DNA of 64,000 bases from an uncultured Alphaproteobacteria bacterium (GTDB lineage Bacteria; Pseudomonadota; Alphaproteobacteria; Rs-D84). The translations under genes were made by a program, and so were the position numbers. The stretch lies in NCBI GenBank assembly GCA_944390225.1, contig CALXPB010000001.1, positions 16,408-80,407 on the forward strand. The letters are read 5' to 3'. Positions 5,352 through 56,732 of the stretch are shown here, piece after piece (the stretch's first letter is position 1; every line of letters starts with the position of its first letter). Under the pieces are notes generated by a model that saw only the letters and a program-made list of their open reading frames with translations, had not been told where the DNA came from and did not search any database.

Positions 5352-6962
5352 TCATTCTTCAATTTCTAGACTGTCAATATAAGTCCTGTTAACGCGTTCT
5401 AATGGTACAGATATAAAATCAGGAGATACGATTGCCTGACCTGTATCTTCTGGTAGAACTATCAGATTTTCTTGGTTAAAAAACATAGATTCGTCATATT
5501 CTGAGTTTATATTTGTTGCCCTCATTTTATATTTGCTTTGAAACCGTTCCGGAATCATAACATAATCGCCTAGATTAATTTCAATCGGATCCAGTTTTTT
5601 TGCTCCTGTCGGTCTTATATTATGCTGTTCTATGTTATAAATAGGAGCCAAAAAGTTTTGCGGAGCGTTTCTTACGATTCTTGTTGAACCGCTTCCAGTT
5701 AATTGTACAACCTGTAAAGCACGTTCACTTTCCCCAGTTGGTTTTAGTCTAAATAAACCATCAAGTCCGATGTATCCACTGGGGTCCAGAAGATATGCTG
5801 CGTTGCTTTTGTCAGAGTAAATCATACCTATTGCCATATTTGCTGCGTCATAACCAAAAGTTGCTAATCTATTTGGTGCTTTACCAGACATTTGTTCGTA
5901 TAAGTTAGTAAATTCATATGAAATTTCTGGTAATGTTGCGTACTTAGCACCGTACATTGTAAAATCGTTTGCTATATCAGAACCTTCCCATACGGCAGTA
6001 CCATAAAAGCGAACGTCTTTGGCATCAACACCATAATAGCGTAAGAAAGATGCGATGTTTTTAGTATCATCAGAAGTTCCTAAGAATAAAACGGCATCAT
6101 AAGGTAAATTACCTAATGTGTCTGATTTTGATAAGTTTTCTAATTGAATCGTCATAGATGATTTTTCAATTATTGTAAGAAGTTCGTTCGTTAAAATATC
6201 TGATAAAACTTCGCGTGCCTTGGTATTTGCTGCAACCCGCGAATCGTTCATAGATGCTTCTTTGGTTATGTTTTTTATGGACTCGGAATCATTTTCATTA
6301 TAGTAAAAAATACCGGAAACTGGTACGTTATATATTTCTGAAGCACTTACAGCAGTCCCAGCCATTAATTTACCGGATGACGTGTTAGGGGCTACAATTA
6401 TGAAACTTTTTATGCCGTCATAAAACATTTCTTTTACTATCGTTTCAATACTGTTTGTCGGCATCAATGCCATTGTCATAACACCTTTCCCGATAGAGCT
6501 AGCATCTGATGTAAACGATAAAACAGGTAAATTGTCCGGTTTAAGATTTCGCAACGCACGGGCATCATCTGAAAATACAGGTCCTATTATTATTTCAGGA
6601 TTTTCTGAAAGTGCGTCATTTATAGCGTTATAAGATTCTGTGTCATAAAAAGATACCGATAAGTTCCGAGGTGCATTTTGTAAAACAGCAGTTTCAATAG
6701 ATGTTCTGATGGTCTGACCTGTTGCAGCGTTATCGCCAGATAGCGGTAATAACACAGTCATTCTATGAACTGGTGCACCTAAAAAGTTATCAGAAGGGCG
6801 ACCCACTTGGGTTTCTTGTGAACTATATTGTATTTGAGCAGGACTACCTGTTTCAAGTTCTCTGTACCCACCGAACCAATCTTCTTGTGGTGCCCCGCAA
6901 GCAGCCAGTAATAATAATGTTAAAAAAACAAAAAATTTCTTTATATACATTGAAAAATCCAT
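5352..6962 (-). CDS. LpoA/LppC-like lipoprotein (periplasmic-binding-protein fold, putative penicillin-binding-protein activator)
   Basis: Lipobox LLLAAC. Type-I PBP-like body. Divergent from rsmI, as lpoA(yraM)/rsmI(yraL) are in E. coli. Alternative start 6950. Confidence 0.55.
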   Translation of the reverse strand: MDFSMYIKKFFVFLTLLLLAACGAPQEDWFGGYRELETGSPAQIQYSSQETQVGRPSDNFLGAPVHRMTVLLPLSGDNAATGQTIRTSIETAVLQNAPRNLSVSFYDTESYNAINDALSENPEIIIGPVFSDDARALRNLKPDNLPVLSFTSDASSIGKGVMTMALMPTNSIETIVKEMFYDGIKSFIIVAPNTSSGKLMAGTAVSASEIYNVPVSGIFYYNENDSESIKNITKEASMNDSRVAANTKAREVLSDILTNELLTIIEKSSMTIQLENLSKSDTLGNLPYDAVLFLGTSDDTKNIASFLRYYGVDAKDVRFYGTAVWEGSDIANDFTMYGAKYATLPEISYEFTNLYEQMSGKAPNRLATFGYDAANMAIGMIYSDKSNAAYLLDPSGYIGLDGLFRLKPTGESERALQVVQLTGSGSTRIVRNAPQNFLAPIYNIEQHNIRPTGAKKLDPIEINLGDYVMIPERFQSKYKMRATNINSEYDESMFFNQENLIVLPEDTGQAIVSPDFISVPLERVNRTYIDSLEIEE

Positions 6963-6998
6963 TTTATTCTGTATTATTTTACTATAAAAGGATTATAA

Positions 6999-7793
6999 AT
7001 GCAATCTGGGCTTTATATTGTTGGAACTCCGATAGGTAATTTGTCTGATATGTCTCCTCGGACAATAGAAGTCTTAAAGAAGGTAGATTTAATAGCAACG
7101 GAAGATACCCGGGTTTTCGGTAAGTTGGCAAGTCATTTTGATATAAAAACGTCTCGCGTTTCTTGTCATGAGCATAATGAAAAGCAGGTAATACCTGACC
7201 TGATTGAAAAAATTTCAAAGGGTGCCGCGGTTGCGACCGTATCTGATGCTGGTATGCCCGGAATCAGCGACCCTGGTTTTCGCTTGGTACGCGCGGCAAG
7301 GGATGCAAAATTACCTGTCTTTGTTGTACCTGGACCTGTGGCGGCAATATCGGCTTTGGTTTTATCCGGTTTCCCGACAGATAGATTTACTTTTTGCGGT
7401 TTCTTTGACGAAAAAAAATTACGCGATGATAATAAAATTCGTCACACAATTATTTATTATGAAAGCCCAAATAGAATTATGACGACTATATCTGCTTTGG
7501 CCCGCGTAATGCCAGAAAGAAAAATCGCCATAGTACGAGAAATTACCAAAATTCATGAGGAAACAATTATAGGATATCCGGCTGATTTATTAAATATAAC
7601 GCCTCCGCGGGGAGAAATCGTGATAGTTGTTTCTCCTGCCCCAGAACATAAAATGTCTGATGATGAAATTATAGAGTTGGTAAGTGAAATATCTGCTGCT
7701 TCAACGAAAAATGCTGCCGCTGATTTGGCGGTACGTGCAGGAATTTCAAAGAAAGAGGCTTATAAAAGGCTGCTAAAAAAAGAGGAAGAATAA
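6999..7793 (+). CDS. rsmI: 16S rRNA (cytidine1402-2'-O)-methyltransferase
   Basis: LYIVGTPIGNLSDMSPRTIEVLKKVDLIATEDTR and VSDAGMPGISDPG tetrapyrrole-methylase-fold motifs. Confidence 0.9.
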   Translation: MQSGLYIVGTPIGNLSDMSPRTIEVLKKVDLIATEDTRVFGKLASHFDIKTSRVSCHEHNEKQVIPDLIEKISKGAAVATVSDAGMPGISDPGFRLVRAARDAKLPVFVVPGPVAAISALVLSGFPTDRFTFCGFFDEKKLRDDNKIRHTIIYYESPNRIMTTISALARVMPERKIAIVREITKIHEETIIGYPADLLNITPPRGEIVIVVSPAPEHKMSDDEIIELVSEISAASTKNAAADLAVRAGISKKEAYKRLLKKEEE

Positions 7794-8347: not shown

Positions 8348-10844
8348 AAAAGTCTTTTATCCAACAAATCCTGCACATACGCTGGATGCGCTGTGGAAAA
8401 TTTTGTCCGATTCAGAAACGGACTTAGAAAATATTTTAATATTTTTACCCAGTCGCCGTGCAGTCAGATCTGTAGAAAAATTTCTGGTTAAAAAATACGG
8501 TCATTGCATTATTCTGCCTCGTTTGGTTGCATTAGGTGAGGGGATAGATGATTTAGACGATGAAACAGAATATACAGATGTAATTTCTGATACAGAGAGA
8601 CTTGTACTTTTGATAAAATTATTATCACAAGATGCAAGTATAGGGAATATTACAACAGCAATACCAATTGCTCGTGATTTATTGCGTATGCAAGATTATC
8701 TTGAAAACGAGGGAATTGATGCGTCAAAAATTTGTTGGTCTGAATTGGTAGATGAAAAATACGCAGAACATTTTCAGCATAAAGCAGATTTATTAAATAT
8801 TTTATCACAGGTACAATCTTTTTATGCTCGGAATAAACAGACTCGGGTACAGGCGCGAAATAAAGATATTCATTCATGGATAAAACATCTAGATGAATAT
8901 AAGTTGGTTGTTGTATGTGGTTCTACGGGTAGTGTACCGGCTACGGCTGATTTAATGGAGGCTGTTTTTAATAAAGATCATGGGCGAATTATATTGTCAG
9001 GAAAAATAGTAGGGCGCAAAGAAGATTTTGAAATTGATTCAAATCCTTATAATGCAGAATATAAATTTCTAAAACGTATAGGACTAAATCCGTCAGATAT
9101 ATCAACTATTGAAGTTGGAAATAGCGCAATAGATTTTTTTAATTACGCTTTCGGAAATGATGCAGAAAATCTTGGCGGGGGTGAAAGTATAACTCACTGC
9201 CATTTAATAGAATGTTCACGAGAAAGCGAAGAAGCATCTGTCGTTGCCGAGATTGCAAACCGTGCAGTGTCAGAATCTAAAAATGTTCTTGTTATTACAC
9301 CGGATGCAGCAGGAAATCAGCGAATCGCAACAGAGTTGATTGCGCGCGGTCTGAAAGCAGATTTTTCGGGTGGTGTTTCTGGTACTATGACTGCAACTGG
9401 GCGTGGGCTATTAAATATGTTTGATGAATGGATAGAAAAAGAGGACTACTCTGTTTTTGAGAAATTTTATTACGATTCTGAAAAAGATTTTTTCAAGACA
9501 ATTATAAATTTGGTTCAATATAGTGATATTGCTTTTAACCCTTCGTTTGAAATTACCGATTCGGTTTCTATGCAAATATGGGGGACTATAAAAAATCTAT
9601 CAGATTGTTTAAATAAAGCAGATCTACATTTAAATGTATTTGATGCTCGTTCTTTATTAGCAGATACAATAAATGGAATTACTGTTCGGAGTGATATGGA
9701 TGATGAAGCAAAAATATTTGTTTTGGGAACCATAGAATCTAGAATGCAAACTGCGGACGTTGTAATTTTGACAGGTTTGAACGAAGGAATGTTCCCCGCA
9801 CAAGGATATGAAAACGCTTGGTTACCAAGACAATTGTCAAAAGAAATAGGTCTGCCTTCACCTGATAGAAAGGTTTCTTTACAGGCTTTGGATTTTATGA
9901 ATTTGTCTTGCGGAAAAGAAGTTTATTGGTTGCGTAGCAGAATATCAGGTGGTGTACAAACAACCGAATCAAGATTTTTATCTCGTATTATGGCTCGATT
10001 TGGAAAAATAGATTTTAACGTTGGGCAAGATATATTAAACTCAGTTCGTGCAAAAGATGTCATAAATTTAAATCCTTTGGATTATTCGGCGCCTACGCCA
10101 CCTGCTGATTGGTCTGATGTTTTTGTAACAGAATTGGAATTACTAATACATAATCCATACGCTTTTTATGTAAAACATATTTTACGTTTACAACCAAAAG
10201 ATGATTACTGGTTGCCTCCGGATGCAAGAGTGTTTGGGAATCTTGTACATGCAGTAGTTCAAGATAGTAAAGATTTTTCTTCGCATAATTTAGTCCAAGA
10301 AATGGATAACCGGGCACATAAGGTTTTAGGAAAAGATAGCATTTTATTCCACTTCTGGCATAAACGTTTTGTTGAAATTGCACCGATAATAGAACAAGAA
10401 TTATCACAGATAAAAGATTCTTTGGCAGAGATTGAAGGAAAGGTAGAAATTGCCGGAAGAAATATTCGTGCACGCGCTGATAGAATCTGGGACGGATGTG
10501 TCGTTGATATTAAAACCGGTTCCGCACCAAAAGAAAAACAATTATTAGAAGGTAATATGCCTCAATTACCGCTGGAAGCATATATTTTAAAAAATTCTGG
10601 TTTTCCGCTTTATACAACTGAAAAATCAAAAACACCTATAATGATGTTTTTACAATTAAAAAATAATGATGTAAGAGCGATAAAATACGATTCTGAAACA
10701 ACAGAAAAAATGATTTCTGCCGCGGTCGAAAAAACAACCGGTTTAATAAATATGTTTTCTGTCGGTCGTGCTCCATATGAATACAGAGAAACAAACGACA
10801 GAAAATATAAAGCATATGATGATTTTGCCAGATGTGACGACTGA
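8334..10844 (+). CDS. addB: Double-strand break repair protein AddB (alphaproteobacterial type), relatively short (836 aa)
   Basis: N-terminus LIFLPSRRAVRSVEKFL. C-terminal PD-(D/E)xK nuclease (RADRIW..VVDIKTGSAP..EAYIL). C-terminal YDDFARCDD. No addA follows. Confidence 0.7.
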   Translation: MVLSKKVFYPTNPAHTLDALWKILSDSETDLENILIFLPSRRAVRSVEKFLVKKYGHCIILPRLVALGEGIDDLDDETEYTDVISDTERLVLLIKLLSQDASIGNITTAIPIARDLLRMQDYLENEGIDASKICWSELVDEKYAEHFQHKADLLNILSQVQSFYARNKQTRVQARNKDIHSWIKHLDEYKLVVVCGSTGSVPATADLMEAVFNKDHGRIILSGKIVGRKEDFEIDSNPYNAEYKFLKRIGLNPSDISTIEVGNSAIDFFNYAFGNDAENLGGGESITHCHLIECSRESEEASVVAEIANRAVSESKNVLVITPDAAGNQRIATELIARGLKADFSGGVSGTMTATGRGLLNMFDEWIEKEDYSVFEKFYYDSEKDFFKTIINLVQYSDIAFNPSFEITDSVSMQIWGTIKNLSDCLNKADLHLNVFDARSLLADTINGITVRSDMDDEAKIFVLGTIESRMQTADVVILTGLNEGMFPAQGYENAWLPRQLSKEIGLPSPDRKVSLQALDFMNLSCGKEVYWLRSRISGGVQTTESRFLSRIMARFGKIDFNVGQDILNSVRAKDVINLNPLDYSAPTPPADWSDVFVTELELLIHNPYAFYVKHILRLQPKDDYWLPPDARVFGNLVHAVVQDSKDFSSHNLVQEMDNRAHKVLGKDSILFHFWHKRFVEIAPIIEQELSQIKDSLAEIEGKVEIAGRNIRARADRIWDGCVVDIKTGSAPKEKQLLEGNMPQLPLEAYILKNSGFPLYTTEKSKTPIMMFLQLKNNDVRAIKYDSETTEKMISAAVEKTTGLINMFSVGRAPYEYRETNDRKYKAYDDFARCDD

Positions 10845-49589: not shown

Positions 49590-49955
49590 TTGTTAAATAA
49601 TAATAAAAACTCAGATTTTACTTTGGCTGTGGCTAATCTAGCAGCAGCGGCTATGTCGGCGAACCCATCTCTTACAATAGAGGCCGCAGTAAAGGCGGCA
49701 CGTGAATCTTTGCGCGGAACTTCTGTAACTCCGCAGCAGATTGCCGATTCTGTTCAATCAGATAAAATTCAATGCCTTGAAGACGGAACATGGCACGTTA
49801 TGCTGAGACGTTATATAAAACGAAAATTTAATTTAACTCCCCAACAGTATCGTGAAAAATGGGGATTGCCAGACGATTATCCATTCGTTGCCTCTAAGTA
49901 TTCTGTAAAACGTTCTAAAATAGCCAAAAAAACTGGACTTGGGAAAAATAAATAA
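49590..49955 (+). CDS. MucR/Ros family transcriptional regulator
   Basis: C-terminal IQCLEDGTWHVMLRRYIKRKFNLTPQQYREKWGLPDDYPFVASKYS. TTG start inferred. Confidence 0.8.
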   Translation: MLNNNKNSDFTLAVANLAAAAMSANPSLTIEAAVKAARESLRGTSVTPQQIADSVQSDKIQCLEDGTWHVMLRRYIKRKFNLTPQQYREKWGLPDDYPFVASKYSVKRSKIAKKTGLGKNK

Positions 49956-49968
49956 AAAGGCTCAGATA

Positions 49969-51891
49969 ATGACAGATAAATTTAGAAATATTGTTGCACA
50001 ACCAGAAGAGCTAGCAAAAAAATTACGTAAAGCAATAGAAAAAACTAAACCCATAAAATTTATTGATGAACAGAGTAAAAATAAATCTGGTGAACCAAAC
50101 AGTCGTGAAAAAGTAATTGATACTGCAAAAAAAACTGCTTTGGTGACTGCCAAAGGAGTAGGGTGGCTTGCAGCAGGTGGGGCGCAATTTTTACTAACTC
50201 TGTCCAGATGGATCGCACTAGATAATTCCTTGTTGCGAAAAATGGAAGATATGTACAGAAATAGAAAAGTTCAAAAAAATAAGAAAGGGAAAAATAAAAA
50301 TTTACAATCTTTTACTAAAAAGTATCCGAATTTATCGGCTCATATACTTTGGTATTTTTTGCTGGCAGCAGTAATAGGTGGTGTAAAAGTATCTGTAGAT
50401 AATGGAAAGAAAATCGTTTCTACATATAAAGAAATGAAAACAGATAAAGAAATAGCAGAAAGCACAAAAGGAACTTACGCGGCATTTTTAAATAAAATGA
50501 AGCCAATAACCCCATTTTTAATAGCAGATTTAATAGCGAAAGAAGGTGTTCATATTGATAAAAAAACAGGTTTACATACACCTTATAGGGACTCAAAAGG
50601 GATACCGACAATCGGATTTGGATCTACAATTTTGAAAGATGGCACCAGTGTTACTATGAACACAAAACCAATAACAACTGAAGAGGCTTATGAATTAGCG
50701 CGTTGGCATTTGGAAGATGGTGAAACTTATTTTGTATTGTATTGTTATGATGTTGCAATTGATGGTATAAACGTTAACACGACAAACGAGGCTTTGGGTA
50801 TGAGTTCTATAATTTATAACTCTTATTCAAAATTGATAGAAAATAAAAACGACAGAAACCATAGGGAAAGATTTAGCGAATTAAGACTTTTATATGATAA
50901 GTATGGTTATGCTTTACCAGATTCTTTGGTGAAAGAAATATTTGATAAGTACCCAATAAATTCTCCAACAAGTTTTGGTAAGTCTTGGTTGGAAAACGAT
51001 AATAAAGAGATTACTGCTAATAAACTTGGCGGATTTCTTGTCGGGGGAAGAGGACTTTTTTGGAGACGTTGGTTAGAGGCAGGGCTTTTTACAGGTTATA
51101 TTACGCCACAAATGTTATTGGAATGCCCGTCTAATGGGATGTACGAATTTTTTAAAGTAATGGGAAAAAAGAAAAACGCTTTTTTTACGGGTGATATAGA
51201 AAACAGGCGTGTTAATAAACAAACATTCGAGATTTTTAAAGAATGGCTGAAAGATCCTGTTGATGAGAAAGGTAATTCTCTAGAAAACTGGCCAAAGGTA
51301 AAAGAACATTTACCAAAAGAAGTTTTAGTTTTTTGTGAACAAGGTAAATGTGAATTTGGTAACGAATATTTTGAAGAAATAATTAAAAAACGAGAACCAG
51401 AAGAAATAAAAACTTATGTTCTGGGTTATGATGATATGTATAATCAAGCTTTAAATGCTTTTAATAATGAAGATTTTAAATTGGCCGCAATCGAGTTTGA
51501 AAAGATGATTCGCAAATATCCTAATAATGCTTTATTGCATAATGATTTGGCTGCAACTTATAACAAACTTGGAAAATACGATGATGCAATAAAACAGGCT
51601 CGTATAGTTTTGTTTGAGATTGGTGATAAAAGTCAATATGGAGCAGCCCAATATAATGCCGGTATTGCATATGAAAAAAAGAACGATTTAAAAAATGCTT
51701 TAAAAAATTATAAATTAGCCGTTAAAAATGGTAATAAAAAAGTCAAATATAATCTAAACAGAGTGCAGAAAAAACTGCAAAAAAATAAAACCATTGAGTT
51801 TTTTCAGGCGGAAAATAATATAAAGAAAGATAATGTTATAGATAATAAAGACACAATATTTTCTATTTCAGATAAAACAAATTTATTATAA
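49969..51891 (+). CDS. Membrane-anchored GH24 (T4-type) lysozyme-like protein with C-terminal TPR repeats
   Basis: Two TM segments. Motif EGVHIDKKTGLHTPYRDSKGIPTIGFGS (E..D..T of T4 lysozyme). TPR-like ..YNQALNAFNNEDFKLAAIEFEKMIRKYPNNALLHNDLAATYNKLGKYDDAI. Confidence 0.65.
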   Translation: MTDKFRNIVAQPEELAKKLRKAIEKTKPIKFIDEQSKNKSGEPNSREKVIDTAKKTALVTAKGVGWLAAGGAQFLLTLSRWIALDNSLLRKMEDMYRNRKVQKNKKGKNKNLQSFTKKYPNLSAHILWYFLLAAVIGGVKVSVDNGKKIVSTYKEMKTDKEIAESTKGTYAAFLNKMKPITPFLIADLIAKEGVHIDKKTGLHTPYRDSKGIPTIGFGSTILKDGTSVTMNTKPITTEEAYELARWHLEDGETYFVLYCYDVAIDGINVNTTNEALGMSSIIYNSYSKLIENKNDRNHRERFSELRLLYDKYGYALPDSLVKEIFDKYPINSPTSFGKSWLENDNKEITANKLGGFLVGGRGLFWRRWLEAGLFTGYITPQMLLECPSNGMYEFFKVMGKKKNAFFTGDIENRRVNKQTFEIFKEWLKDPVDEKGNSLENWPKVKEHLPKEVLVFCEQGKCEFGNEYFEEIIKKREPEEIKTYVLGYDDMYNQALNAFNNEDFKLAAIEFEKMIRKYPNNALLHNDLAATYNKLGKYDDAIKQARIVLFEIGDKSQYGAAQYNAGIAYEKKNDLKNALKNYKLAVKNGNKKVKYNLNRVQKKLQKNKTIEFFQAENNIKKDNVIDNKDTIFSISDKTNLL

Positions 51892-51901
51892 GGATAGTCT
51901 T

Positions 51902-53914
51902 ATGAAAGTTTTTATCAGTTATAATGATAATAGATGGAAAAAATACCATATAGATTTTGCAGAAATTGCAAACGCCGTTGTTGAACATACTAATAAAAAC
52001 GCCGAGGTTTCAATTGTTTTAACAAACGATACAGAAATTCACGAATTAAATAAAAAATATAGAAATATTGACAAGCCCACTAACGTTTTATCTTTTGAAT
52101 TAGATGATGATATTTTATTGGGAGATATTTATATATCTTTGGATACCGTTTTTCGTGAAGCAGATGAACTAGGTATATCTGTTGAAGACCATACCGCTCA
52201 TATGGTTGTACACGGGGTTTTACATTTATTGGGCTATGATCATATTAAAGATGAAGACGCAATTGTTATGGAATCAAAGGAAATAAAAGTGCTTAAAAAA
52301 CTAGGTATAAAAAATCCCTATGAATCAGAGTTAAACATTTGTTGTGATTCTTCTTGTTGTCCTGGTGGTCGTTTGCTTTCTTGGTTAAAAAAACTTAAAA
52401 TTCGTAAAAATAGTTTAGAGCAATATATTTTATTGTTTCTATTAGGTGGTATCGCTTCGCTTGGCTTTGCACCGTTTTATATGTGGTGGGCTACTGTTAT
52501 TGCCATTGCGTGTGCGTATAAATTAATTGTGCGCTCTGCAAATAAGAGTGACGGTTTATTTAAATGCTTTTTACGGGTCTTGCCGTTTAGTGCAACTTAT
52601 GCAGTTTCTATGTTTTGGTGGGTTTTACATTCTATATACGTTGTACCAGAATTAGCAACTCAGTTTGCAATATGGACTGCACCTGGAATATTGAGTATCG
52701 CGCTTGTCGGAGGTTTTGTTTTTTCTATTCCTTTTGTTGTAATATCTCGTATGTGCACGGTTCCTGCATATAGACCGATTTTTTTCGCTGCAACTTGGAC
52801 TTTTGTTTTATGGCTGCGAGAATGGTTGTTTACAGGTTTCCCTTGGAATCCAATTGCAAATATAACAATGACTTTACCTGTTTTGGCAAACTCTATGTCT
52901 GTGTTTGGGGCCTTGGGATTATCTTTCATTATAATAGGTTTAACCGCAACGATAGTAGAGTTGTTATCAGATAAAAAATCAAAAATAAATTGGTTAAATT
53001 TTTTAATTTTTATAATGCTTGGTGTTATAGGATCTATGCTCGGATATCGTAATATCCAAATTGCGCAAAAAGAAGAAAATATTTCTCCTGTTATTCGTGT
53101 CGTGCAACCCGCACAAAGTGCTGTTCAAAAGGCGTCTCATTCCAGAGCTGAAGCACTGAAAAACGCAGAAGAAAATATTAAAAATTTAATATTACTAGCA
53201 GTTGCTCCATATAAACCTGATTTAATAATTTTCCCCGAGACCTCTTACCCTTTTGTCGTAGTCAGAGATGATGTTTTGCCTATTGCTGATGCTATACAGG
53301 CTAAGGTTTTAATAGGCGCCACATCTTATGATGAAAAAGGTTTACATAATTCTATGCTAATTCTTTCGCCAGACGGTGTAATTCAAAATATTTATAGTAA
53401 ATCTCATCTTGTGCCGTTCGGAGAATACAGACCTTTCGGAGATCTTATACCTACTCCGGGGCAATTGGTTGCAGGTAACGGACCAGAAATTTTTACTTTA
53501 AAAATTAATGAAAAAGATTTTTCATTTATCCCGGCAATATGCTATGAGATAATTTTTTCTGATTCTTTGCAACCCCAAGAAAATATGCATATAGACGCGA
53601 TAGTTAATATCACAAATGATACCTGGTTCGGGAAAACACCAGGAACATATCAACATCTTGATATGGTGCGGAGATATGCGATTGAATCTGGATTACCTAT
53701 TATAAGAGCAAATTATTCTGGAATTAGTGCCTTTATATCTTCTGATGGTGAAATAATTTCTTATTTACCAATAGGTCAAGTTGGTCATCTGGACGGATTT
53801 GTGTGGGGAGCGCATAAAACTCTATATCGTACTGTCGGACGTGACGGCTGGATGATAATTATATTGGCGTTTTCGATTATATATGTTGCTATATTGGATA
53901 AAAGAAGAAAATAA
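51902..53914 (+). CDS. Fusion protein: YbeY endoribonuclease domain plus apolipoprotein N-acyltransferase (Lnt)
   Basis: One uninterrupted 670-codon ORF. N-terminus HGVLHLLGYDH (YbeY Zn site). A Cys-rich linker ICCDSSCCPGG, then Lnt TMs and nitrilase domain (FPE.., K in YSKSHLVPFGEY, C in PAICYEIIF, NITNDTWFG). Confidence 0.8.
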   Translation: MKVFISYNDNRWKKYHIDFAEIANAVVEHTNKNAEVSIVLTNDTEIHELNKKYRNIDKPTNVLSFELDDDILLGDIYISLDTVFREADELGISVEDHTAHMVVHGVLHLLGYDHIKDEDAIVMESKEIKVLKKLGIKNPYESELNICCDSSCCPGGRLLSWLKKLKIRKNSLEQYILLFLLGGIASLGFAPFYMWWATVIAIACAYKLIVRSANKSDGLFKCFLRVLPFSATYAVSMFWWVLHSIYVVPELATQFAIWTAPGILSIALVGGFVFSIPFVVISRMCTVPAYRPIFFAATWTFVLWLREWLFTGFPWNPIANITMTLPVLANSMSVFGALGLSFIIIGLTATIVELLSDKKSKINWLNFLIFIMLGVIGSMLGYRNIQIAQKEENISPVIRVVQPAQSAVQKASHSRAEALKNAEENIKNLILLAVAPYKPDLIIFPETSYPFVVVRDDVLPIADAIQAKVLIGATSYDEKGLHNSMLILSPDGVIQNIYSKSHLVPFGEYRPFGDLIPTPGQLVAGNGPEIFTLKINEKDFSFIPAICYEIIFSDSLQPQENMHIDAIVNITNDTWFGKTPGTYQHLDMVRRYAIESGLPIIRANYSGISAFISSDGEIISYLPIGQVGHLDGFVWGAHKTLYRTVGRDGWMIIILAFSIIYVAILDKRRK

Positions 53915-53918
53915 AAAA

Positions 53919-54122
53919 TTATTTTTTTACTTGTTTTAAAACCCATACTCGTATAGCAGAGGATAAATTTTCTTCGGGGCTACGTATAGAGTCAATTTCT
54001 GATATTATTGAAGCAATAGATTTTTTTTGCTCTTTTGCAATTTTTTGCAGGCATTCTATGAATTCTGGCTCCATTGATATGCTCGTTTGGTGACCTGATA
54101 AAGAAACAGATAACTTCTTCAT
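53919..54122 (-). CDS. Ribbon-helix-helix (RHH_4/PF13467-like) protein
   Basis: LSVSLSGHQTSISMEPEFIECLQKIAKEQKKSIASIISEID...NLSSAIRVWVL. ATG at 54122 is preferred (ORF-track TTG at 54143). Confidence 0.7.
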   Translation of the reverse strand: MKKLSVSLSGHQTSISMEPEFIECLQKIAKEQKKSIASIISEIDSIRSPEENLSSAIRVWVLKQVKK

Positions 54123-54126
54123 GTCT

Positions 54127-54561
54127 TTAATTTTTCCCCGCAATTAAACAATCTGTTAATGCCTTATATGAATCGTCATATTTACGTAATGTCTTTAAGT
54201 TTAAGTTGTCCAACATAAAACATTTACCAAAAGAATCAAAAGCAAACCAAAATAAATCATTCCTGCCAAAAACTGTTTTACCACGCATTTGTGGGTGTTT
54301 TATTACAGGACGATTTATATCAATAATGTTAGGTACGGGAAAATTTATACCGATATTAAATTCAGATGGACCAAATATATATCCACTACCAAGATTTATG
54401 CCTCCTGTTTTTATATATAGTTTTTGTATGAAATCTGGTATCATAGCAGCATACATTTGTTGCAGATAGGTATTTGTTATTTTTATATCTTTTTCAGGTA
54501 CGCTAGGCGCAAAATAGGCACCTTGGGATTTCATTGTAGATAAAAATTCTTCTTGTGTCAC
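54127..54561 (-). CDS. SUKH/SMI1-KNR4-like protein (putative immunity-type fold)
   Basis: IPDFIQKLYIKTGGINLGSGYIFG and LFWFAFDSFGKCFMLD match the SUKH pattern (LPxDYxxFxxxxNGG ... FaxDgxGnxxcxD). GTG start with a GGGGG SD. Confidence 0.5.
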   Translation of the reverse strand: MTQEEFLSTMKSQGAYFAPSVPEKDIKITNTYLQQMYAAMIPDFIQKLYIKTGGINLGSGYIFGPSEFNIGINFPVPNIIDINRPVIKHPQMRGKTVFGRNDLFWFAFDSFGKCFMLDNLNLKTLRKYDDSYKALTDCLIAGKN

Positions 54562-54575
54562 GGTTGCCCCCGTTC

Positions 54576-55079
54576 TTATATGTCCCTGTCATTTGCCAAT
54601 TGGGCCGCAAGTTGAGATAACCTGTCTTCTGTTGCATTACCACCGTCGCCCCCAGATGCCGTGTGGGTGGGTACGTAAACCTTTTTTGCCGGATTCGGTA
54701 ACCATATGTTGTCGTTTCCTTGTTGATCTATGATGAATAAGTCAAGATTATGAGATTGTGGAAATGTTCGGCACATAAAAAGATTTTCTAATTCTAATTT
54801 TCCGCCCCATACCAGTGGTATTCTGAAACGTATAGACAGATTTTCAGGTAGTTTTCGCCCCATTATTAATTCCATAAAATCGTCTTGCTTTATGTTCATA
54901 AATACTAATTCTTGTACAGAATCGGTTAAAGAAGACATAAATTCTCGGCATAATTTTTTATATGTTTTAAACCAATCTGGTGATACAGTGCATAAACTGG
55001 GCGTTATATTCATCAGCGGCATATCTTTCATATTCATACCCGCTAGTTTTTTTTCTGCTGTTTCCTTACTTATCTGCAT
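54576..55079 (-). CDS. Hypothetical protein with HNH (beta-beta-alpha-Me)-like motif lacking the canonical first His
   Basis: SIRFRIPLVWGGKLELENLFMCRTFPQSHNLD resembles DH-I-x-P-x3-GG-x5-NL-x3-C-x6-H. TGATG overlap with the upstream gene. Confidence 0.45.
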   Translation of the reverse strand: MQISKETAEKKLAGMNMKDMPLMNITPSLCTVSPDWFKTYKKLCREFMSSLTDSVQELVFMNIKQDDFMELIMGRKLPENLSIRFRIPLVWGGKLELENLFMCRTFPQSHNLDLFIIDQQGNDNIWLPNPAKKVYVPTHTASGGDGGNATEDRLSQLAAQLANDRDI

Positions 55080-56023
55080 CAAATTTTCCCTATATATTTT
55101 AACACTGTATCAATATATTCTGAATATGCATCAAAATCTCCTTTGTCATCAGAAGATACAGGTGGATTCGGTACATTTTTCATATATTCACGTAATTCAG
55201 ATATTGTGTTAAACATAAGAATATCTTCGTTTTCAGAAGTTGCGGCATCAGGAGCACTTATCACAAAACCGTTTATGTTTATGTATATGTCATCCAAAGT
55301 GTCAGAAAATATTTGCGATAATCTTTCGATTATTGTGCGTAAATTTGTTGTCTTTATTCCAACCGCACCAATCCATAAATTTTCATCTGTACCAATTGCA
55401 AATAATGCAATTTTTGTACCATTAATATAAGGACTTGGTTTTACTACATATCCTGCATTAGAAAATATTTCTTGTATTTCTGGGTAGTCTTGAATTGGTG
55501 TTTTCTCAGTATTCATTGTATTTTCTTGGACTTGTGTTGATTTTTGTGTGCTTATAAAATTATTGTTGTTAAGTGTCGGTAGATTTAATCTTGGTGGTCG
55601 CATACTGACCGGTGCCACAGGAGTTTTCTGTACAGGAGCATATTGGTATTCGGATGGCAAAATATCCAATGTAGATGCGTCGTTGTTAATATTATCGCCC
55701 ATTGATTTATTTGATTCTTGCCCAATTTCTGATTTTGTATCTTTTTTTGAAGGGGTATATATCTGAGTCAGTTTCATTTTACGTAGTTTTGGACGTAAAA
55801 TCGCATAAAAACCAAATAGTGCTATAAAAACAATTACGATCATGGATACATAAAACGTGTAATTTATAGGCGATTTTGCTGCTTGTAAATATGCAAGGTA
55901 CTCCCAATGATGTATAGAAAATATATTAAAACCAAAAATTGTGTTGAACCAAAAACTTGCCACCAAAGTAACGGCAACTAACCATAATAAGCCAAGTAAA
56001 ATATTATCTATTCTTTTTTTCAT
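55079..56023 (-). CDS. Hypothetical 2-TM membrane protein with low-complexity linker and cytoplasmic C-terminal domain
   Basis: TMs LLGLLWLVAVTLVASFWF and FYVSMIVIVFIALFGFYAIL. P/N/Q/T-rich linker. About 130-aa C-terminal globular region (..TKIALFAIGTDENLWIGAVGIKT..). Confidence 0.55.
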   Translation of the reverse strand: MKKRIDNILLGLLWLVAVTLVASFWFNTIFGFNIFSIHHWEYLAYLQAAKSPINYTFYVSMIVIVFIALFGFYAILRPKLRKMKLTQIYTPSKKDTKSEIGQESNKSMGDNINNDASTLDILPSEYQYAPVQKTPVAPVSMRPPRLNLPTLNNNNFISTQKSTQVQENTMNTEKTPIQDYPEIQEIFSNAGYVVKPSPYINGTKIALFAIGTDENLWIGAVGIKTTNLRTIIERLSQIFSDTLDDIYININGFVISAPDAATSENEDILMFNTISELREYMKNVPNPPVSSDDKGDFDAYSEYIDTVLKYIGKI

Positions 56024-56066
56024 TTGTTTTTAATTATATCATATTTATGATAAAGTAAAAAGAGTT

Positions 56067-56732
56067 ATGATGAATACAGACTTTTTTCTTGATGAGGATT
56101 TATATACCATTGCTTTATGGTGTCGGGCAGGGGCAGAACCTACGGATCTTGCGTATGCGGCAGAGTGTGCAATTGAACATGAACTTGACGTTATATCCGT
56201 AGTACCTGAGGCCGTATCTATATTATGGCCGTGGTTAGAAACAGAATCAGTAAAAATTCTTGCTAGATTTTATTTGGATGACTTCATAGATTCGGATTCG
56301 ATGTCAGAGTTTACTGCAAATGTAAATACCGTATTAAAACAGGGGGCCGATGGAATACAAGTTTTTATTCGATATAAAGATTTAGAAACTTTTGTGGAAC
56401 AAATATATTCTATTCGTGATGATTTGTTTTTTAATAAAGAATTATTCATAGGTATAGATATAAATGACATAAATCCTTTTGATTGGGAAAATGTTTTAGA
56501 GGCTTTGAATAAAATTCATGCAACTGGTTTGATTTTGGTTTTACCTAAAGACAAAGGTGATAAGTCAGATTATGTCGGACGTTTATATGCTGCACTGGAA
56601 GCATGGAAAAACGATTTTAATTTATATTTCTTTCTTGGAGATAATCTTCTGCGGATAGAGCAGACCAAGCGTTTGATAAAATCTATGCAACCGAATTTAT
56701 TAGACCGTGTAAAGTTTTTTATAAATGTTTAG
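56067..56732 (+). CDS. Hypothetical protein (221 aa, cytoplasmic, alternating beta/alpha pattern)
   Basis: Long ORF with no recognised motif. Its 3' end overlaps convergent trmB by 4 nt. Confidence 0.5.
   Translation: MMNTDFFLDEDLYTIALWCRAGAEPTDLAYAAECAIEHELDVISVVPEAVSILWPWLETESVKILARFYLDDFIDSDSMSEFTANVNTVLKQGADGIQVFIRYKDLETFVEQIYSIRDDLFFNKELFIGIDINDINPFDWENVLEALNKIHATGLILVLPKDKGDKSDYVGRLYAALEAWKNDFNLYFFLGDNLLRIEQTKRLIKSMQPNLLDRVKFFINV

Follow-up and report, generated by a model that had tools for sequence, protein, structure and literature searches.

A conserved four-gene operon of Rs-D84 Alphaproteobacteria related to an HNH toxin/immunity-type gene pair and to VirD4-linked gene sets

What is a gene set with the grammar of a toxin/immunity system doing among the core genes of a bacterium with a small genome? 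The question is raised by four minus-strand genes, called g1 to g4 here in the order in which they are read, at positions 53919-56023 of a 64,000-nucleotide stretch (the window) of contig CALXPB010000001.1 (GenBank assembly GCA_944390225.1, positions 16,408 to 80,407 of the forward strand), which derives from an uncultured alphaproteobacterium of the lineage Rs-D84. The genes encode a membrane protein (g1), an HNH-like protein (g2), a candidate immunity-type protein (g3) and a ribbon-helix-helix (RHH) protein (g4), and a first-pass annotation made from the sequence alone had read them as a toxin/immunity or conflict system. That reading appears to hold for the ancestry of g2 and g3, which are related to E. 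coli YhhZ and YrhA, and to fail for the operon as it exists at present. On balance, a VirD4-linked nuclease effector/immunity module was probably the ancestor of the operon, which would since have been exapted to encode a non-toxic complex tethered to the membrane. A role that is now non-toxic is probable because the catalytic residues of g2 have been lost and the set is kept as conserved core genes.

The ancestry of g2 (54576-55079, minus strand; 167 amino acids [aa] counted from the ATG) is not evident from standard searches, as it has no family in Pfam, NCBIfam, PADLOC or PHROGs, and single-sequence and profile searches of the Protein Data Bank (PDB) with g2, g3, g4 and the divergent neighbor of g1 (u221, described below) found no match. 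An AlphaFold2 (AF2) model of g2 based on 94 sequences (predicted local distance difference test [pLDDT] 88.8, predicted template modeling score [pTM] 0.82) has an N-terminal helical part, a beta-beta-alpha unit (strands at residues 81-85 and 100-104, helix at 105-117) and a conserved tail, modeled at low confidence, that is followed by a helix. The tail, GGDGGNATxDRL, is nearly invariant, and G146, G147, N148, T150, D152 and R153 are invariant in the 94 sequences. Foldseek searches of the PDB and BFVD with the model gave no significant match, and the weak matches, each non-significant alone, were dominated by HNH domains. The HNH-like beta-beta-alpha motif that the first-pass annotation had noticed is borne out by the model as well as by the homology described next.

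An exhaustive search of 1.84 billion representatives with the profile of the Enterousia g2 proteins (A2) returned 73 matches, including about 40 distant relatives that were found at whole-library E = 1e-5 to 1e-39. The distant relatives are 170-420 aa long, many begin with MWDWS, and they have P/Q-rich N-terminal regions with the g2-like domain at the C terminus. Their traceable sources are uncultured Alphaproteobacteria as well, and a Pfam scan of ten of them found no family. MAFFT aligns the C-terminal domain of E. coli YhhZ with the entire g2 family, and a hidden Markov model of the family built without YhhZ matches YhhZ residues 253-362 at 66 bits (E = 1e-22, with one target). The shared region of about 110 residues includes an RRDFL-type helix, a PxN..GG..N..P core and an invariant Q. 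YhhZ consists of an Hcp domain fused to an HNH domain, and the region homologous to g2 belongs to the part matched by the Pfam HNH model. A profile limited to the Enterousia proteins is too diverged to find YhhZ directly (hhalign E = 0.1; 5 bits in hmmsearch), and the link is therefore transitive. Judged from these alignments, g2 and the HNH toxin domain of YhhZ are homologs that are connected through distant alphaproteobacterial relatives of g2.

Whether g2 could still act as a nuclease was addressed by mapping the alignment onto YhhZ and following the active-site columns in 241 sequences, comprising 178 short forms and 63 distant forms. Equivalence of the columns to those of colicin E9 is taken from the motif HHDKP...GG...N...HxxxH, in which YhhZ H325 presumably corresponds to ColE9 H103. 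The general-base column (YhhZ H325) is F85 in the window protein and is His in none of the 241 sequences; it is occupied by F, L, M or C in all 178 short forms and by L, I, V, F or M in all 63 distant forms. The metal-ligand column at YhhZ H324 is R84 in the window protein, Arg in 178/178 short forms and His in 49/63 distant forms, and the one at YhhZ H349 is S109 in the window protein, Ser or Ala in 175/178 short forms and His in 42/63 distant forms. Nearly all sequences retain the structural residues N99 and G92-G93. This pattern indicates that g2 keeps the HNH scaffold without the catalytic chemistry and that the long forms among the distant relatives likely retain the metal site without the canonical general base. 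Since YhhZ as an outgroup keeps the histidines, the complete absence of these residues from the short forms is most easily explained as a derived state.

The first-pass suggestion that g2 is the nuclease toxin of a toxin/immunity pair is therefore unlikely, given that the general-base and metal-ligand histidines have been lost across the 178 orthologs. The most likely activity of g2 would be to bind nucleic acid or a partner machine without catalysis, and binding of nucleic acid is suggested by the invariant R84/R86, which occupy former metal-binding/base histidine positions.

A second link to the same E. coli locus comes from g3 (54127-54561, minus strand; 144 aa), which has a GTG start preceded by a GGGGG run. 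The window protein matches the NCBIfam model for the YrhA family (NF038335) at E = 5.3e-6 and 26.4 bits, under the 55-bit cutoff, and the model matches 84 of 97 g3 orthologs with a best E of 6.5e-11. A reconstructed E. coli YrhA scores 122 bits with this model. The g3-like proteins encoded behind the long, VirD4-linked forms of g2 score 64-77 bits, above the cutoff, and those of other diverged loci score 35-47 bits, except in locus L086, which has no match. Based on the sub-cutoff score of the window protein and the scores of its VirD4-linked relatives, g3 is a diverged YrhA relative rather than a curated member of the family. Alignment of g3 with the truncated K-12 YrhA fragment by hhalign gave no link, and significance is reached only via the distant relatives and the NCBIfam model. 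In E. coli K-12, yrhA overlaps the end of yhhZ, and g3 is likewise located immediately downstream of the HNH gene g2. The profile match of g2 to YhhZ and the NF038335 scores of g3 thus connect both genes to two adjacent genes of E. coli, and g3 would by family relation and position be an immunity-type partner of a YhhZ-type HNH domain.

It is possible that g3 belongs to the SUKH superfamily. Its size, its position right after a nuclease-fold gene and its weak similarity to SMI1_KNR4 (7/97 orthologs), SUKH_5 and SUKH_6 (E = 0.04-0.11) resemble SUKH (SMI1/KNR4) immunity proteins. Unlike these proteins, g3 has Pfam matches that are far under threshold (best E = 0.022, with SMI1_KNR4) and is not polymorphic, as its ratio of nonsynonymous to synonymous substitutions (dN/dS) is 0.08. 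The N-terminal fragment of E. coli YrhA has no Pfam match.

Hcp-HNH proteins with downstream immunity genes are characterized effector/immunity pairs of type VI secretion systems, an example being Hcp-ET1/ETi1 (PMC6099711), to which YhhZ is likened by architecture class only. The operon resembles yhhZ/yrhA in that an HNH gene is followed immediately by a partner gene and both partners are related to those of E. coli. It differs from yhhZ/yrhA in several respects. Besides lacking the active-site histidines, g2 has an additional conserved N-terminal region and the GGDGGNATxDRL tail, and the pair is encoded in one operon together with a membrane protein and an RHH protein and, rather than occurring sporadically, belongs to the vertically inherited core genome. 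As the first-pass annotation had remarked, the usual trafficking domains are missing; g2 is a stand-alone protein with no Hcp fusion and no trafficking domain in Pfam or NCBIfam.

An explanation for the missing trafficking domain comes from the genomic contexts of relatives, where the homologous genes flank a VirD4 type IV coupling protein (T4CP). These contexts were taken from the loci of distant g2 relatives and from 20 metagenome loci. The order in the long forms is one or two g1-like membrane proteins, VirD4, long g2 and a g3-like protein. VirD4 is encoded directly upstream of the long g2-like gene in 20/20 loci with upstream DNA, the g3-like gene is downstream of it in 24/24 loci with downstream DNA, and one or more g1-like genes are upstream in 16/16 loci with enough upstream sequence. 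The membrane proteins upstream of VirD4 are matched by the Enterousia g1 profile (A4) at E = 1e-6 to 1e-11, and VirD4 is a clear T4CP (PF02534 at 193 bits, TraG-D_C and TrwB_AAD_bind). No virB genes were recognized within about 7 kb in the loci inspected (Pfam tables for L087-L089; for L105, a listing of open reading frames [ORFs] with two flanking genes scanned with Pfam), and for this reason VirD4 looks like an orphan in the relatives. In locus L089 a gene for an RHH_4 protein precedes the VirD4-linked set, and the RHH gene is missing from the other VirD4-linked loci. Forms closer to the window operon also occur, as the four-gene order g1, g2, g3, RHH_4 recurs in two more diverged lineages, L086 and L091. 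The gene for a YbeY::Lnt fusion, which adjoins g4 in the window, is adjacent again in L086, where u221 is divergent, and L091 has different flanks with no lnt adjacency. Locus L090 is a short distant form with g2 and g3 only.

Several features of the VirD4-linked modules were observed in addition. The modules usually have two tandem g1-like paralogs, and some have an extra 317-aa ORF, located between the g1-like gene and VirD4, that resembles the N-terminal membrane part of VirD4; the regions concerned are 3067-4020 in L104/L105/L107, 1332-2486 in L088 and the DNA upstream of VirD4 in L092-L099. The long g2 forms (L087-L111; for example L105, 6482-7543) have the MWDWS start followed by a long P/Q/Y-rich low-complexity region, and they end in a conserved GGK..DRSVYAGF...KSMPGR tail. 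They possess three candidate metal-binding histidines and an invariant Tyr in an EYGG motif, and the canonical general base is missing. Beside the module of L089 is a gene for a protein with a type IV pilin-like N terminus (6156-7016), and about 3 kb beyond it is a gene for the competence protein ComEC (8685-10616).

Xanthomonadales are known to have nuclease effectors that are recognized by VirD4 and paired with immunity proteins, among them an HNH/EndoVII effector (PMC13600162, PMC11253643). The relatives resemble such effectors of bacteria-killing type IV secretion systems (T4SSs), namely X-Tfe/X-Tfi and LtdD of Lysobacter, in that an HNH-fold protein and an immunity-type gene are encoded beside VirD4. 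They differ in that a Pfam scan detected no XVIPCD domain in the ten distant g2 relatives that it covered, no virB was recognized nearby in the inspected loci, and not even the VirD4-linked forms have the general-base His; moreover, the window operon has no VirD4, and the hosts are Alphaproteobacteria rather than Xanthomonadales. Conjugative Dtr-type operons, such as trwA-trwB-trwC of R388, encode an RHH accessory protein, a type IV coupling protein and a DNA-processing enzyme. The order in L089 (RHH_4, g1-like, VirD4, HNH-like, g3-like) is reminiscent of these operons, and VirD4 has the TraG-D_C 'TraM recognition' domain; unlike in Dtr-type operons, no relaxase, integrase or mating-pair-formation genes were seen, and the likeness is one of gene grammar only.

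These relationships raise the main alternative, in which g1, g2 and g3 are accessory subunits, adaptors or a substrate of a VirD4/T4SS encoded elsewhere in Rs-D84 genomes, comparable to the recruitment of effectors by VirD4 in bacteria-killing T4SSs or to the adaptors of coupling complexes. Such a role would account for homologous genes in the relatives being wrapped around a bona fide T4CP and for a membrane-spanning region of g1 that is more conserved than a plain anchor requires, and the conserved tail of g2 together with its helix could be a recognition signal, HNH-domain T4SS effectors recognized by VirD4 being known (PMC13600162). It is nevertheless unlikely. A tblastn search of the window with three VirD4 sequences found no match, neither VirD4 nor virB was found in the window or in the roughly 10-kb flanks of the orthologous loci examined, VirD4 looks orphan even in the relatives, and the word 'secretion' is absent from the comparative paper on Rs-D84 (PMC12306168).

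The distribution of the operon bears on whether it could be a present-day conflict system. At least 460 relatives of g2 were found, with a constant length of 166-170 aa and identities of 61-72%, and g2 is encoded in 249 GTDB species representatives, of which the closed genomes are 0.72-0.96 Mb. The clade corresponds to Ca. Enterousia/order Rs-D84, in which all members have reduced genomes (PMC12306168). Named sources of g2 are uncultured gut or rumen Alphaproteobacteria with the single exception of a record labeled Lachnospiraceae. Among the loci collected, the operon was also observed in records labeled 'uncultured Muribaculaceae bacterium' and 'Lachnospiraceae bacterium OttesenSCG-928-E19' (L040, OZ246409.1; L081, CAZJGX010000010.1; P0052/P0199). 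L040 has the typical Enterousia neighborhood and L081 is too short to reveal one. These labels are probably taxonomic mislabels or the result of bin contamination.

The first-pass annotation had proposed examining whether the four genes co-occur across genomes and sit in variable islands. They do co-occur, with identical order and orientation in 84/84 orthologous loci retrieved, and the flanks are housekeeping genes rather than a variable island. The wider neighborhood (gltX, a GNAT gene, trmB, u221, the operon, ybeY::lnt, a gene for a tetratricopeptide repeat [TPR] protein, MucR and RarA) is usually kept as well. Over the 84 loci, mean identity to the window is 45% for g1, 64% for g2, 58% for g3 and 65% for g4, compared with 60% for lnt, 68% for trmB and 79% for gltX. 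By this measure the operon is conserved about as well as its housekeeping neighbors lnt and trmB. Nei-Gojobori dN/dS values, which were taken over 34-39 closer pairs and are approximate because dS is 1-2.5, are 0.158 for g1, 0.079 for g2, 0.081 for g3, 0.086 for g4 and 0.153 for u221. The genes of the operon are under strong purifying selection and are single-copy core genes of the clade sampled. The locus is fixed, syntenic and vertically inherited, which is the opposite of a polymorphic toxin locus or a defense island.

An origin of the locus as a mobile element or defense island was considered and rejected based on the housekeeping flanks, the lack of an integrase or relaxase adjoining the operon and a PADLOC search that returned no matches. 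A prophage origin was rejected since PHROG matches were negligible.

An active toxin/immunity, toxin-antitoxin/addiction or defense system, in which g2 would be a toxin neutralized by g3 and regulated by the RHH protein, is rather improbable in light of these data. The homology of g2 and g3 to an Hcp-HNH toxin and its downstream immunity-type partner (for the class, see PMC6099711), the RHH gene and the tight coupling of the genes are what such a system would have, and addiction modules can become fixed. In a type II toxin-antitoxin system, however, an adjacent labile antitoxin would neutralize the toxin and autoregulate the operon, and the RHH protein is here the product of a separate fourth gene. 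Set against this are the loss of the HNH histidines across 178 orthologs, the conservation of g2 at the level of trmB, and the failure to find any of the hallmarks of conflict islands, namely variable presence, island context and rapid or diversifying evolution; all 84 loci are syntenic, dN/dS is 0.08-0.16, and PADLOC was negative.

If g2 and g3 form a complex, the first gene of the operon may indicate where that complex is located. The gene g1 (55079-56023, minus strand; 314 aa) has no family in Pfam, NCBIfam, PADLOC or PHROGs and no sequence match in the PDB. The first-pass description of two transmembrane (TM) segments, a P/N/Q/T-rich linker and a cytoplasmic domain agrees with the alignment of 96 orthologs (A4) and with the AF2 model, in which pLDDT is above 90 in the TM region and the C-terminal domain and below 55 in the linker. 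The two conserved TM helices (residues ~2-30 and 55-76) are separated by a short helix and have basic residues at both cytoplasmic ends, with a basic RPKLRK stretch after the second. The linker of about 100 aa is variable and disordered, and within it are the conserved motifs ASTLD and RPPRLN, with R142 and P143 invariant. The C-terminal cytoplasmic alpha/beta domain (residues ~180-314, about 135 aa) is conserved in the 96 orthologs. The best Foldseek match of this domain is NucS/EndoMS (2vld; E = 0.015, prob 0.84), and no match reaches E <= 0.001. Other weak matches are SPO1766, Cas4-family ACE1, bunyavirus cap-snatching endonucleases, Bax1 and PspGI, and the matches are mostly PD-(D/E)xK folds. 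A conserved D...(D/E)xK motif was not found in the 96 orthologs, in which K195 is invariant and the other invariant positions are mostly occupied by hydrophobic residues or Gly. The vague likeness to PD-(D/E)xK nucleases that had been noticed in the first-pass annotation can thus be kept at the level of the fold, which the modeled domain weakly resembles, and it does not extend to a catalytic motif.

The layout of the operon is exactly as first described, with four minus-strand ORFs joined by a TGATG stop/start overlap of 1 nt between g1 and g2, a gap of 14 nt containing the GGGGG run between g2 and g3, and a gap of 4 nt between g3 and g4. The one-base overlap of g1 and g2 is kept in 71/84 orthologous loci, and the remaining gaps are nearly always shorter than 20 nt; because the overlap recurs so widely, the tight coupling of these genes is not due to chance. 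A simple promoter and terminator scan found no convincing internal promoter and no intergenic terminator in the operon, which fits a single transcription unit. The conserved one-base coupling, together with the long flexible linker with its docking-type motifs and the dead nuclease-fold head, suggests that g1 would tether g2 and g3 at the cytoplasmic face of the inner membrane.

On the g4 side, the operon is bordered by the ybeY::lnt fusion gene (51902-53914, plus strand; 670 aa), which has Pfam YbeY, LNT_N and CN_hydrolase domains. On all contigs examined that cover the fusion, it is called as one gene with a product of 596-670 aa, the diverged locus L086 among them. It is convergent with g4, and the stops at 53914 and 53919 leave 4 bp between them (53915-53918), which is too short for a terminator; no terminator-like site occurs close by. 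Beyond ybeY::lnt is a gene (49939-51891, plus strand) for a 650-aa protein with a weak phage-lysozyme-like segment (residues 213-264) and C-terminal TPR repeats, and it adjoins ybeY::lnt in most relatives. Elsewhere in the 64-kb window the genes are those of an ordinary core genome (RuvABC, RecA, SecDF, MutL, FtsK and others).

Such surroundings could also be explained if the homology to YhhZ and YrhA were incidental and the genes formed an unrelated lineage-specific housekeeping operon, for instance one for the envelope or cell division. Core-genome context and purifying selection would be expected of such an operon, as might the lnt neighbor, whose adjacency as ybeY::lnt recurs even in the diverged L086, and the TM-linker-globular architecture of g1 is ZipA-like and resembles that of membrane tethers. 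This explanation is very improbable, however, as g2 and g3 each have an independent and statistically strong homology to one of two neighboring genes of E. coli, the families are bridged by the intermediate VirD4-linked forms, and the lnt adjacency is lost in L091.

The last gene of the operon is a candidate for its regulation. As had been recognized at first pass, g4 (53919-54122, minus strand; 67 aa) encodes a ribbon-helix-helix protein, with a match to RHH_4 (Pfam PF13467) at E = 3.6e-21 and 75.4 bits against a gathering cutoff of 25. It has the same position in 84/84 loci and also in the diverged four-gene forms L086 and L091, and it is a probable DNA-binding regulator of the operon. A candidate target is found at the other end of the operon, in the 43-bp region (56024-56066) that separates g1 from the divergent gene u221 (56067-56732, plus strand; 221 aa). 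This spacer is 42-45 bp in 76/81 loci measured. A 30-nt core at 56033-56062 (CTTTTTACTTTATCATAAATATGATATAAT) has a mean column identity of 94.6% in 77 species, compared with 70-75% for flanking coding DNA. Within the core is an imperfect palindrome, TTTATCATA-AA-TATGATATA (56035-56054), that is formed by two face-to-face extended -10 elements, TGATATAAT directed toward g1 and TGATAAAGT directed toward u221, and the leaders on both sides are reduced to a few nucleotides. The arrangement suggests that the 30-nt core is a compact bidirectional promoter that doubles as a candidate operator of g4. A simple sigma-70 scan misses the candidate promoter because its -35 element is weak.

The product of u221 has no Pfam, NCBIfam or PDB sequence match. 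The gene is present in 82/84 loci, is adjacent and divergent in 79/81 intergenic regions measured, and has homologs with both diverged four-gene forms, adjacent in L086 (E = 3e-38) and nearby in L091 (E = 4e-29); no u221 homolog was seen in the VirD4-linked loci. The first-pass annotation had placed the operon between lnt and an unrelated hypothetical gene, of which the former is correct apart from the fusion to ybeY. The latter gene appears to be anything but unrelated, since the shared and nearly invariant candidate promoter region suggests that u221 belongs to the unit of the operon.

The favored history, that of an exapted and non-toxic complex, can be outlined from these comparisons. The ancestor would have been an effector/immunity module built around an orphan VirD4-type coupling ATPase, as found in deeper-branching uncultured Alphaproteobacteria. 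In Rs-D84/Ca. Enterousia, the operon has been left without VirD4 and ends with an RHH_4 gene, and neither the N-terminal extension nor the HNH histidines remain in g2. The protein g2 would have ceased to be a DNase toxin and would be stably bound to g3, once its immunity protein, with g1 holding the resulting complex at the inner membrane. By binding the nearly invariant palindromic bidirectional promoter, g4 would co-regulate the operon and the divergent u221.

Several points weigh against this history. Complex formation by g2 and g3, their tethering by g1 and autoregulation through g4 are inferred throughout. It is conceivable that g2 has a non-canonical catalytic mechanism and that the module continues to cooperate with a secretion system, with VirD4/T4SS being encoded elsewhere in Rs-D84 genomes. 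The VirD4-linked form is taken as ancestral from the character states of outgroups, with YhhZ and the long forms keeping histidines, and not from a rooted phylogeny. The independent sample of VirD4-linked loci is smaller than 20 because several of them are near-duplicates. Finally, the SUKH fold of g3 and the PD-(D/E)xK fold of g1 are weakly supported.

A more far-reaching possibility, which is put forward only tentatively, is that the g1/g2/g3 set represents an undescribed family of machines in uncultured Alphaproteobacteria, which in Rs-D84 has been stripped down to a VirD4-less, non-catalytic and indispensable core complex. In its ancestral form, the machine would consist of an orphan VirD4-type ATPase, a membrane protein with a dead PD-(D/E)xK head, an HNH-fold protein that keeps the metal ligands and lacks the general base, and a YrhA-type partner. 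Such a machine would handle DNA or protein and would differ both from conjugation and from the known killing T4SSs. If true, a toxin/immunity pair would clearly have been exapted for an essential function of the cell.

No description of the VirD4-linked gene set was found in the literature, and the set suggests either a new class of alphaproteobacterial T4SS effector/immunity loci or an orphan coupling ATPase that has been put to a new use. For the Rs-D84 bacteria, the relationships described here provide a first evolutionary handle on four core genes, or five with u221, that are annotated as 'hypothetical' in a widespread group of uncultured gut bacteria. Toxin/immunity pairs are usually seen as fast-evolving and dispensable conflict genes, and here both partners are frozen into the core genome of a clade with genomes of 0.7-1 Mb. 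The toxin appears to have been disarmed and the pair to have gained a membrane tether and a regulator, which, if true, would make the operon a tractable example of how conflict modules enter core functions.

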